From Eledone cirrhosa (lineage: Eukaryota): DNA of 64,000 nucleotides. A program made the position numbers and the translations under genes. Below the pieces are notes generated by a model, which was given only the letters and a program-made list of their open reading frames with translations, did no database searches and had not been told where the DNA came from. Position 1 is the first letter of the stretch, and each line of letters starts with the position of its first letter. Where the stretch lies: positions 5,704,001 through 5,768,000 of the forward strand of contig OZ024747.1 in assembly GCA_964016885.1 (NCBI GenBank). Direction: 5' to 3'. Below, one piece after another: positions 3,762 through 60,702 of the stretch.

Positions 3762-4317
3762 TTAACCCTTTAATGACCACATTTCTAATAAAATACAATA
3801 TTTTAATTAATGAAGAATGTTGAAGGATTTACTAACACTGTTAATTACTTCACTGTTAATTACTTCATTAGTAAGATGGTAACATAATGTAAAGTCCTTA
3901 TAGAAAATTATGTTGGAAGATTTTAATTTAAATTGAAAACCTTTAAAATGGGTGATTTTATTTCATAGAACCAGGGCTGGTTTTGGCTGGGTTGGTAACT
4001 AAAGGGTTACATAAGAATCCTTTAAATTAGGTGGTTTTATTTCATAAAACCAGAGCTGGTTTGGGTCTGCATGGTAGCTAAAGGGTTAACTAGATGCAAT
4101 TTAAAATAGGTGGTTTTATTTCATGAAACCGGAGCTGGTTTGGGTCTGCATGGTAGCTAAAGGGTTAACTAGATGCAATTTAAAATAGGTGGTTTTATTT
4201 CATGAAACCGGAGCTGGTTTGGGTCTGCATGGTAGCTAAAGGGTTAACTAGATGCAATTTAAAATAGGTGGTTTTATTTCATGAAGCCGGAGCTGGTTTG
4301 GGCCTGCATGGTAACTA
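3762..4317 (+). mobile_element. piggyBac-type MITE with tandemly reiterated right end (79-bp units)
   Basis: Left end TTAA-CCCTTTAATGACC (3762). Right end GGTARCTAAAGGG-TTAA recurs at ~4010, 4089, 4168, 4247. Confidence 0.65.
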
Positions 4318-8644: not shown

Positions 8645-9945
8645 CAATACGCTTTTAACACCAAATACTGACTCGAAATCCTTGGCATCAGCTAGGATAA
8701 CTTCATCACCAACAAATAAGTCCATCAAGGAACCCACCAATAACGTGTGTCTAACATCTTGTGCAAGAGTCGTCTTGACTGGTAGAGACATGTCACATGA
8801 CTCCCAAATGAGAGACGTCCCACATTGGTATGTACCTCCATGGAAAGAGGGAAAGAAAACGTCCCAAGATGCTCTGGCGGCAGATATTCTCCAAGGACCA
8901 GAAACCTGTCAACAAAAGTTGGAACGATGTATAGATAGATGGAACTGACTGCTGTCATTGGAGCACTTTGCCTGCCTCGTGTGTCTCAAGACGTGGGATG
9001 TATTGATAGATGTAACTGACTGTGGTCATTGGAGCACTTTGTCTGCCTCGTGTGTCTCAAGGCGTGGGATGTATTGATAGATGTAACTGACTGTAGTCAT
9101 TGGAGCACTTTGTCTGCCTCGTGTGTCTCAAGGCGTGGGATGTATTGACAGATGTAACTGACTGTGGTCATTGGAGCACTTTGTCTGCCTCGTGTGTCTC
9201 AAGACGTGGGATGTATTGATAGATGTAACTGACTGTGGTCATTGGAGCACTTTGTCTGCCTCGTGTGTCTCAAGGCGTGGGATGTATTGATAGATGTAAC
9301 TGACTGTGGTCATTGGAGCACTTTGTCTGCCTCGTGTGTCTCAAGGCGTGGGATGTATTGACAGATGTAACTGACTGTGGTCATTGGAGCACTTTGTCTG
9401 CCTCGTGTGTCTCAAGACGTGGGATGTATTGATAGATGTAACTGACTGTGGTCATTGGATCACTTTGTCTGCCTCGTGTGTCTCAAGGCGTGGGATGTAT
9501 TGATAGATACAACTGACAGTGGTCATTGGAACACTTTAGTTGTCTCACGTGTCTCAAGACATGGGATGTATTGATAGATGTAACTGACTGTGGTCATTGG
9601 AGCACTTTGTCTGCCTCGTGTGTCTCAAGGCGTGGGATGTATTGATAGATGTAACTGACTGTGGTCATTGGATCACTTTGTCTGCCTCGTGTGTCTCAAG
9701 GCGTGGGATGTATTGATAGATACAACTGACAGTGGTCATTGGAACACTTTAGTTGTCTCATGTGTCTCAAGACATGGGATGTATTGATAGATGTAGCTGA
9801 CCGTGGTCATTGGAACACTTTGGCTGCCTCATGTGTCTCAAGGCATGGGATGTATTGATAGATGTAACTAACTGTGGTCATTGGAGCACTTTGTCTGCCT
9901 CGTGTGTCTCAAGACGCAAGGGCTTCTAAGTATCAGTAAAAGTCT
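8645..9945 (+). pseudogene. Degenerate RTE-clade LINE 3' portion
   Basis: Across stops and frameshifts: AFNTKY*LEILGIS*DNFITN...SRLDW*RHVT*LPNERRP...GKRERKRPKMLWRQ...HWSTL.ASC, matching RTE C-terminal motifs. May extend back to ~8095 (NFDYLD). Confidence 0.75.
8934..9916 (+). repeat. 71-bp minisatellite, ~14 copies
   Basis: Unit gatagatgtaactgactgtggtcattggagcactttgtctgcctcgtgtgtctcaaggcgtgggatgtatt; starts at 9005, 9076, etc. Confidence 0.95.
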
Positions 9946-19669: not shown

Positions 19670-19870
19670 AGGTAAGTTATTCCGGGTTGAATCGGAGGTA
19701 ACCTCAGTAAGTAAGGTACTCAATACATAGCAGAGTATAAAAGTTTTAACATAGATGAGATTCTACAGGACTAGAACTGTTTCATTCTTTAGAAATCATC
19801 AGGAATCTGATTCCTGATGATTTCTAAAGAATGAAACAGTTCTAGTCCTGTAGAATCTCATCTATATTAA

Positions 19871-19874
<4 letters not shown>
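19670..19874 (-). mobile_element. Fold-back element family B with hammerheads on both strands
   Basis: Palindrome 19742-19874 centred on 19808 (one mismatch). HHR gattc CTGATGA tttctaaagaat GAAA cag-loop-ctg TA gaatc at 19809-19857 (+) and 19759-19807 (-). Flanked by (TA)n. Confidence 0.85.
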
Positions 19875-19907
<33 letters not shown>

Positions 19908-22012: not shown

Positions 22013-22401
22013 TAAAAGTTCTATTTAAATTGTTGGGATACAACAAGCAAATATTTTTATAACTGATATAAAGCACTCAACAAATATTTGGAGTAAAAAT
22101 ACGATATTAACAAATGGAAACTATATTTATAAAACCATATTTATTTCATTATACATATTTGAAGGACATCAAGTTAAATTATGGTGTGCTTTCATCAGAC
22201 ATCAGACAAAATATAATATAGATCAGAGCTTCCAACAGTAATGGTTGCATTTTTTAAGGGTATGTCAATATTTATTTATAAAACTGATCTATATTATATT
22301 TTGTCTGATGAAAGCACACCATAATTTAACTTGGTGTCCTTGAAATATGTATAATGAAATAAATATGGTTTTATAAATATAGTTTCCATTTGTTAATATC
22401 G

Positions 22402-22404
<3 letters not shown>
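22013..22404 (-). mobile_element. Fold-back element with degenerate hammerhead
   Basis: ~125-bp inverted arms (22099-22404); CTGATGA aag..acacca-loop-tggtgt..ctt GAAA tatg TA at 22305-22351; tail motif at 22073; between (TA)n. Confidence 0.65.
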
Positions 22405-28045: not shown

Positions 28046-28090
<45 letters not shown>

Positions 28091-28122
28091 CACATATGTA
28101 CTCACAAACACACACATACATG

Positions 28123-28157
<35 letters not shown>

Positions 28158-28280
28158 GAATATAGACATAGAATATTCGAAAATATTCTGTATGTTTATA
28201 ATAAACATTTTGAAGACCTAATCGCTATAGAATAGAATACGTCACGTATTACAATTAGATTCTCGATAAAAGCAAGGGAA

Positions 28281-28324
28281 GTAAATCTACGCGTTTCATT
28301 CTTATTAGAAATCGTCAGGACTAC
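28281..28324 (-). ncRNA. Minimal type I hammerhead ribozyme in the inverted unit
   Basis: Reverse complement of 28650-28693. Confidence 0.85.
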
Positions 28325-28649
28325 ATATCCAGTGCTTTTATCGAGAATGACACAGCTAGAGACTTATAGAATACTTAGCTGTGTACAGGAACTGGTTTGA
28401 AAGAGCGGTTGCCGGTCCGGCAGAAATTAGAAATTGGAATAAATGCTCTGAAATAGCGATATATATGTGAATATAGACATAGAATATTCGAAAATATTCT
28501 GTATGTTTATAATAAACATTTTGAAGAGCATTTATTCCAATTTCTAATTTCTGCCGGACCGGCAACCGCTCTTTCAAACCAGTTCCTGTACACAGCTAAG
28601 TATTCTATAAGTCTCTAGCTGTGTCATTCTCGATAAAAGCACTGGATAT

Positions 28650-28693
28650 GTAGTCCTGACGATTTCTAATAAGAATGAAACGCGTAGATTTAC
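28650..28693 (+). ncRNA. Minimal type I hammerhead ribozyme (repeated at 28961, 29272, 29583)
   Basis: gtagtc CTGACGA tttctaataagaat GAAA CGCG TA gatttac; palindromic ACGCGT stem III; GUA cleavage triplet. Confidence 0.85.
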
Positions 28694-29987
28694 TTCCCTT
28701 GCTTTTATCGAGAATCTAATTGTAATACGTGACGTATTCTATTCTATAGCGATTAGGTCTTCAAAATGTTTATTATAAACATACAGAATATTTTCGAATA
28801 TTCTATGTCTATATTCACATATATATCGCTATTTCAGAGCATTTATTCCAATTTCTAATTTCTGCCGGACCGGCAACCGCTCTTTCAAACCAGTTCCTGT
28901 ACACAGCTAAGTATTCTATAAGTCTCTAGCTGTGTCATTCTCGATAAAAGCACTGGATATGTAGTCCTGACGATTTCTAATAAGAATGAAACGCGTAGAT
29001 TTACTTCCCTTGCTTTTATCGAGAATCTAATTGTAATACGTGACGTATTCTATTCTATAGCGATTAGGTCTTCAAAATGTTTATTATAAACATACAGAAT
29101 ATTTTCGAATATTCTATGTCTATATTCACATATATATCGCTATTTCAGAGCATTTATTCCAATTTCTAATTTCTGCCGGACCGGCAACCGCTCTTTCAAA
29201 CCAGTTCCTGTACACAGCTAAGTATTCTATAAGTCTCTAGCTGTGTCATTCTCGATAAAAGCACTGGATATGTAGTCCTGACGATTTCTAATAAGAATGA
29301 AACGCGTAGATTTACTTCCCTTGCTTTTATCGAGAATCTAATTGTAATACGTGACGTATTCTATTCTATAGCGATTAGGTCTTCAAAATGTTTATTATAA
29401 ACATACAGAATATTTTCGAATATTCTATGTCTATATTCACATATATATCGCTATTTCAGAGCATTTATTCCAATTTCTAATTTCTGCCGGACCGGCAACC
29501 GCTCTTTCAAACCAGTTCCTGTACACAGCTAAGTATTCTATAAGTCTCTAGCTGTGTCATTCTCGATAAAAGCACTGGATATGTAGTCCTGACGATTTCT
29601 AATAAGAATGAAACGCGTAGATTTACTTCCCTTGCTTTTATCGAGAATCTAATTGTAATACGTGACGTATTCTATTCTATAGCGATTAGGTCTTCAAAAT
29701 GTTTATTATAAACATACAGAATATTTTCGAATATTCTATGTCTATATTCACATATATATCGCTATTTCAGAGCATTTATTCCAATTTCTAATATATATAT
29801 ATGTATATATATATATATGTATATAAACGTATATATATATATATATATATATAAAAGTATATATACACACATTTATATGTATATGTATATATATATGTGT
29901 GTGTGTGTGTGTATAAGATTAGATTAAATTTACGGAGTTGAATCTTGTCATAAATATTTATATATATATATATATACATACACACAC

Positions 29988-60305: not shown

Positions 60306-60702
<397 letters not shown>

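Follow-up and report, generated by a model that had tools for sequence, protein, structure and literature searches.

The window (the whole stretch of 64,000 nucleotides of Eledone cirrhosa DNA that was analysed) holds an insertion built from two opposed arms of a single tandem unit of 311 bp with a GC content of 0.34 (34%). The forward arm is an exact period-311 array of 4.077 units that are 100% identical, and the inverted arm in front of it is an exact reverse complement 371 nt long. (TA)n adjoins both arms, which bears on any target-site duplication, and the assembly contains no empty allele of this locus. The longest stop-free frame of the circularised 311-nt unit spans 59 codons and the unit is thus non-coding. 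The initial annotation of this locus had described four identical head-to-tail units of 311 bp, preceded by about 1.2 inverted units, inserted in (TA)n and without coding capacity, and our measurements agree with it on all of these points. It had also regarded the insertion as recent, which is in keeping with 4.08 units that do not differ at any position. The hammerhead core CTGACGA begins at 28656, 28967, 29278 and 29589, while GAAACGCGTA ends at 28686, 28997, 29308 and 29619 and has one minus-strand copy at 28288-28297. Seven long ORFs of the window had no credible Pfam match, and proteins of Penelope-like elements (PLEs) compared with the window gave no match. The features of the locus are given below, with unit positions numbered from the first base after the predicted hammerhead cut.

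28048..28156, no strand: left (TA)n-rich target flank
28157..28527, minus strand: inverted arm, 1.19 units; its outer end is site A, position 131, and blends into (TA)n up to position 140
28281..28324, minus strand: single hammerhead of the inverted arm
28525..28527, no strand: head-to-head junction of the arms, a 3-nt overlap (microhomology) that belongs to the sequence of both
28525..29792, plus strand: forward arm, 4.08 identical 311-nt units; its outer end is site B, unit position 173
28626..28715, plus strand: 16-bp perfect helix (28626-28641 with 28700-28715) that prolongs helix I in every unit, with compensatory changes relative to a sister family
28650..28693, plus strand: type I hammerhead 1, predicted cut after GUA at 28686
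28687..28997, plus strand: predicted cut-to-cut monomer, first of 3 complete ones, putatively a circular RNA
28812..28826, plus strand: site A, unit positions 126-140, AU-rich, with complementarity to (TA)n, where one arm starts throughout the family
28819..28841, plus strand: 23-nt block running from site A towards B, invariant in 5 sister-family monomers
28852..28859, plus strand: site B, unit positions 166-173, start of the other arm, with a match of only 1-2 nt to (TA)n
28961..29004, plus strand: type I hammerhead 2, predicted cut after 28997
28998..29308 and 29309..29619, plus strand: second and third complete cut-to-cut monomers
29272..29315, plus strand: type I hammerhead 3, predicted cut after 29308
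29583..29626, plus strand: type I hammerhead 4, predicted cut after 29619
29793..29896, no strand: right (TA)n-rich target flank

The invariant 23-nt block is a candidate recognition element for the enzyme that would copy the unit.

In each unit the hammerhead is made of CUGACGA, a helix II of 4 bp closed by a U.U mismatch, GAAA, the palindrome ACGCGU and the cut triplet GUA. Helix I has 6 bp with one bulge and continues into the 16-bp helix, and helix III has 1-2 bp with a palindromic loop. A hammerhead descriptor matched the real unit and 0 of 20,000 shuffles. Searching Rfam gave no hammerhead above threshold, the best being HH9 with 10.4 bits (E 8.8), where the cut-off is 52; RF00163, the model with which an Infernal check had been suggested at the outset, was absent from the Rfam matches listed. 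The canonical metazoan type I hammerhead is described as having helices I, II and III of 6, 4 and 1-2 bp with a palindromic loop, and the minimal hammerhead of PLEs as having a helix II of 7-8 bp, a helix I of 4-5 bp, an extra base after position 9 and G10.1-C11.1 (PMC4209133). Helices I, II and III of the unit have the canonical lengths; its 4-bp helix II with a U.U or A-U base, and its 6-bp helix I with a long extension, do not correspond to the minimal class. Judged by its predicted helices, the window hammerhead is therefore canonical (newt/axolotl-like) by the definition of Cervera and de la Pena 2014. We did find a single type I hammerhead in every unit, as first annotated, but its assignment to the minimal type has to be given up.

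The predicted hammerhead is probably dependent on dimers. The active fold is not predicted by energy models, which give the core of the monomer +5.9 kcal/mol and an inter-copy helix III in a dimer transcript a probability of about 1e-7. In a test on Xenopus, dimers of retrozymes were reported to be cleaved in 1 of 9 cases (bioRxiv 10.64898/2026.07.22.740005). Among the insertions of the family, none of the 34 array-wide variants lies in the 11 core positions tested, while 12 of them fall within the 44-nt hammerhead, where 4.8 would be expected (p 0.0017), and these are confined to position 7, loop II or sites where pairing is preserved. Since the variants cluster in the hammerhead and spare its core, we counted them as a sign of selection on the ribozyme. 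In 18 insertions A-U takes the place of the U.U, and 60 of 84 lack the bulge in helix I. The window has the bulged 311-nt variant of a unit whose common variant has 310 nt. For both strands, the predicted circular fold surpasses all 200 dinucleotide shuffles in stability (z -4.35 and -4.81), and 60% of the predicted circle is paired (z -4.35). Two-sided changes were seen at 16 of 100 consensus pairs in an alignment with the sister family that comprises few (6) sequences.

The family is abundant. A 15-nt hammerhead motif has 19,121 matches in the 2,996-Mb genome (control 1), about 0.2% of the genome. In the first 31 Mb of C1 the motif occurs at 17 loci, 10 of which have the exact B-end pattern; scaling up gives an estimate of about 2,000 loci for the genome, and the family thus comprises roughly 2,000 loci with some 19,000 units. 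In order to describe the insertions we used 112 loci from three sets: 17 distinct loci chosen by identity among the first 150 of 513 DNA matches, 88 stretches in which the first 90 of 1,228 B-end matches lie, and 7 loci chosen for carrying the hammerhead motif without the B-end pattern. The array is accordingly not confined to a single locus, and the initial annotation had been right to expect dispersed copies. With a tandem unit, one hammerhead per unit, dispersed copies and a self-paired predicted circle, the family is by these features a non-LTR retrozyme, again as had been proposed.

Words of the unit also occur in public sequencing runs: 20 runs, from 17 studies and with 18 organism codes, contain 63-93% of the unit words sampled, and no RNA run was among those listed. 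Run X1, which has very high depth, is possibly the assembly's own sample. Runs X4, X7 and X19, labelled as other organisms, each have one closed contig of 310 nt at a depth of 17-34 and without flanks. The 340-nt circular contigs of these three runs were considered as a record of the RNA circle and rejected, as tandem DNA collapses in the same way. Such runs are more simply read as containing trace DNA of a high-copy repeat, and we give very little credence to the 310-nt unit being truly resident in the 17 other labelled organisms.

The layout seen in the window is shared by nearly the whole sample. The 112 loci gave 116 pieces, namely 103 two-armed insertions with a start at site A in one arm and at site B in the other (A+B), 1 two-armed insertion with an unclassified short arm, 10 single pieces (2 fragments of less than 35 nt, 1 with a second arm of 19 nt, and 7 that are truly one-armed) and 2 truncated pieces. 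Complete two-armed insertions were thus A+B in 103 of 104 cases, A+A and B+B both having a count of 0. The two sites lie about 35 nt apart, and each outer end, set against (TA)n, is a 3' end of the ribozyme strand. At the loci not picked by end pattern (n=24), 20 of 21 two-armed insertions are A+B, and for the loci chosen by identity it is 17 of 17, which a free choice between A and B at each end would produce with a chance of 0.5^17. The ends also balance genome-wide (B 1,228, control 0; A 1,212, control 157). Measured from the hammerhead motif, 86 ends lie at 129-132 nt and 78 at 163-164 nt. Median arm length in the 99 simple cases is 3.2 units for A and 4.4 for B, a difference that is not significant (Wilcoxon p 0.12). 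At the junctions between the arms of these 99 insertions we found overlaps of 1-8 nt in 58, blunt joints in 8, extra bases in 20 and longer overlaps in 13. The inversion had been first annotated as a 5' inversion of PLE type; the inverted part stands, whereas a random 5' inversion does not, the second arm having a fixed internal start of its own. The possibility had also been raised that the unit is only the pLTR of a coding PLE. Unit sequence fills the 103 A+B insertions except for one 272-nt gap, and they hold no RT plus GIY-YIG ORF between the repeats, which speaks against it.

The sister family is older, with units of 317-322 nt that align over the whole unit (for example L138:1350-1667, minus strand). 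It has a different, remodelled hammerhead with a U3-A8 core and the same two start sites. Its 30 stretches comprise 14 A+B insertions, 1 B+B (seen twice), 5 unclear and 9 one-armed ones.

Information on the template comes from the variants carried by the arrays. The 84 insertions that have 3 or more full units comprise 838 units and fall into 31 haplotypes, 19 of which are private to one insertion, and in 48 of 50 testable insertions both arms have one haplotype. Singletons (n=92, 3.5e-4 per base) are not mirrored between the arms. The arms are multimers, 183 of 198 exceeding one unit, and their inner stops lie at unrelated phases, away from the ribozyme cut: 7 of 198 are within 8 nt of the predicted cut, where 10.2 would be expected, and with no excess of stops there the template shows no 5' end at that point. 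Unit junctions are seamless in 862 of 868 cases. A closed monomer is the best fit to the haplotype, stop and junction data together, and the anatomy of the arrays suggests that this monomer would be a circle. The haplotype changes within an arm in L182 (1100-7501) and L072 (476-4494), which are candidates for template switches, for a mixed template or for an edit during copying. Arms longer than about 14 units contain duplicated blocks of singletons (M061, M085 and L062); long arms have thus grown later by tandem duplication, and the longest ones (27-45 units) overstate the number of turns. A template in the form of a strictly periodic multimeric circle was also considered, and the repeated variants of the long arms gave it no support.

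These young non-coding insertions were probably made by a Penelope-type enzyme that copied the predicted circular monomer, starting from each of the ends left by a cut in (TA)n. An array would be transcribed and cut at its hammerheads, probably as dimers formed through the palindromic helix III, and the monomers would be ligated into circles of 310/311 nt. The GIY-YIG nuclease of a Penelope-like protein would then cut both strands of (TA)n, whereupon priming would take place at B from one DNA 3' end and at A, about 35 nt upstream, from the other, as a rule on one and the same RNA. Each reverse transcriptase would go round the circle for a variable number of turns and the two cDNAs would be joined head-to-head by microhomology, some long arms being later lengthened by ordinary tandem duplication. 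Against this scheme speak the 7 one-armed loci among the 112, the single B+B insertion of the sister family, the haplotype changes within an arm, the energy models and the lack of a match between the unit and the coding PLEs examined.

The same Penelope-type priming may be supposed to act on a linear transcript that is long and uncleaved and comes from another array. Homogeneous daughters would likewise be expected from homogeneous source arrays, hammerhead cleavage is dispensable for insertion of Poseidon in vitro, and the haplotype change of L182 is mirrored in the first two units of both arms. However, private variants present in all units of both arms (19 of the 31 haplotypes) need a bottleneck of one unit, and the 92 singletons are unmirrored. 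The 99 simple insertions show no nested source junction and no transduced flank, one 272-nt gap aside, and with such a template the length of the arms could, by our reasoning, only shrink in each generation. We regard this explanation as unlikely. A linear cleaved monomer, on which the enzyme jumps from end to end to give multimers, would also provide the bottleneck of one unit, and L072 and L182 are candidates for template switches; this version is less likely still, as the arms do not stop at the cut and 862 of the 868 junctions are crossed without any change.

Arrays may alternatively arise from a solo pLTR-like unit that is inserted and then expanded locally by unequal crossover. The duplicated singleton blocks in the long arms of M061, M085 and L062 would fit such growth, and homology to pLTRs has been reported for 24 of 57 Xenopus families, 21 of the 22 matched TEs being PLEs (bioRxiv 10.64898/2026.07.22.740005). 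Local expansion accounts for later growth and not for birth: the arms are opposed multimers with independent inner stop phases and identical private variants, the singleton rate is 3.5e-4 per base, and the window has 4.08 units without a difference. As an account of how the arrays are born we find it highly improbable. Hardly more credible is an origin in DNA-level amplification (an extrachromosomal circle with rolling-circle DNA synthesis) or in an assembly or chimera artefact, the latter an objection that had been foreseen: identical repeats are hard to assemble and palindromic junctions can arise during library preparation, but in 103 loci the outer ends lie at two fixed sites and are each a 3' end of the same strand, that of the ribozyme, the haplotypes are specific to their locus, and short-read contigs of run X1, at very high depth, have loose (TA) ends at A and B.

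Copying of a circle by a Penelope-type enzyme can be compared with what has been reported for such enzymes. The purified Poseidon protein cuts and extends both strands, favours AT-rich DNA, starts at two adjacent internal sites that bound a tail of 30-40 bp, and is reported to insert in vitro independently of hammerhead cleavage (PMC11167929). An inverted copy, and a tail confined to one of the ends, are frequent in copies of PLEs (PMC8557442). The A+B layout matches this two-site priming of both strands and the one-sided tail, and the Penelope-type signature of the initial annotation is thus upheld by an inverted second arm and a spacing of about 35 nt between start sites. With GIY-YIG PLEs (PMC11167929, PMC8557442) the family shares, as those sources describe them, the (TA)n or AT-rich target, priming on both strands at sites 30-40 nt apart, the inverted second arm, the tail at one end and a hammerhead upstream of the starts. 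It differs from them in having no ORF and in arms that are many turns of a 311-nt unit, and its sequence showed no likeness to the ends of those PLE families that were examined.

The genome has coding RT plus GIY-YIG elements of its own, which have two ends in (TA)n. One family has its two ends 61 nt apart and a two-armed copy. The closest named relative of a resident PLE protein comes from Octopus bimaculoides (76% identity), and the proteins carry the CX2-5CxxC linker described for Neptune/Nematis (PMC8557442). A very young family (L285-L313; 29 copies, a mean difference of 0.3%, many frames of 784 aa) ends 124 or 164 nt past a hammerhead-like motif (17 and 15 of 33 ends). This end geometry resembles that of the retrozyme and makes the 784-aa family a candidate partner, although it has no sequence similarity to the unit. 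Local alignment of the unit to 4 PLE ends stayed at shuffle level, and no coding element with the unit's sequence was present in 125 PLE-bearing stretches of about 5 families. The GIY-YIG search gave 10,596 candidates, 150 of which were scored; together with 3 protein queries, a DNA query for a shared module and 12 isolated motif sites, the search for a partner returned non-coding insertions of the sister family or of the family itself only. Matches beside PLE ORFs in L088, L112, L227 and L291 were separate small insertions and were rejected as partners. Two young coding PLE families (L117:5890-5945 and L285-L313) have hammerhead-like motifs with a U3-A8 core, and in the youngest coding family GCAA replaces GAAA.

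A further pattern concerns the kind of substitution, polarity being taken relative to the window unit only. Of 26 array-wide substitutions 9 are A>G, and of 76 singletons 3 (Fisher p 1.7e-4, with 3 sites of unclear polarity excluded). The change 260A>G recurs on 4 backgrounds and 277A>G on 3, and 8 of the 9 A>G sites examined are predicted to be paired with U. A-to-I editing is high in coleoid cephalopods. The excess of A>G is possibly due to A-to-I editing of the RNA, and it also fits selection for G.U-tolerant changes. Tentatively, and with more doubt than confidence, we put forward a fuller picture in which a pair of Penelope enzymes primes both (TA)n break ends on one circular ribozyme RNA, the two polymerases follow one another around the circle, and A-to-I edits that arose on it are written back into the genome as variants of the whole array. 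If true, this retrozyme family would evolve partly at the RNA level.

Retrozymes as such are already known; their two-armed A+B layout may be new. Our literature search, whose scope left Repbase and most subscription papers uncovered, found no paper with this layout for retrozymes or with a cephalopod family. Metazoan non-LTR retrozymes of coral, mussel and axolotl, as presented in PMC7229834, have in common with it a non-coding tandem unit of 150-450 nt with a type I hammerhead in each, a GC content below 50%, a self-paired predicted circle and PLEs in the same genome. Helix III of the window hammerhead is like that of axolotl HHR_Amex1, and the U.U at the base of helix II is like that in HHR_Amex2. 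The account of those elements in PMC7229834 describes no two-armed head-to-head layout and no fixed start sites; expression and cleavage, which are predictions for the present family, are reported there. For vertebrate non-LTR retrozymes, Li, Clavereau and Pollet 2026 (bioRxiv 10.64898/2026.07.22.740005) propose dependence on PLEs from co-occurrence and pLTR similarity, and an origin of arrays in local expansion of a solo terminal repeat. The anatomy of the present arrays points to a multimeric birth, and no parent pLTR came to light in the PLE-bearing stretches searched.

Insertion by PLEs from a circular template was already proposed in 2014 and 2020, and a 2020 review treats the repeats of retrozymes as lacking a motif that points to a partner (PMC7761336). 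The machinery that moves animal retrozymes, and the birth of arrays from circular RNA, have hitherto been hypothesis. About 2,000 near-identical young insertions now record start sites, two-strand priming and origin from a single template, and the family supplies a 311-nt substrate together with a very young candidate enzyme for in vitro work. The proposed mechanism would account for two general traits of Penelope elements, their inverted arm and their tail on one side.

The window has other insertions of similar appearance. A small two-armed (TA)n insertion at 19670-19875 belongs to another hammerhead family, with motifs at 19814 (plus) and 19802 (minus); its helix II is nearly as in the 311-nt unit, its helix III is longer, and it also occurs in L117, L121 and L128. 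At 22200-22402 there is a hammerhead-like motif (22305) with a long helix II, an end in (TA)n and an apparent inverted partner upstream, and at 60405-60600 a hairpin insertion beside (TA)n has a hammerhead-like motif at 60504. The window also contains two minisatellites, 79 bp x 4.8 (3942-4317) and 71 bp x 13.9 (8926-9913), which are about 91-92% matched.
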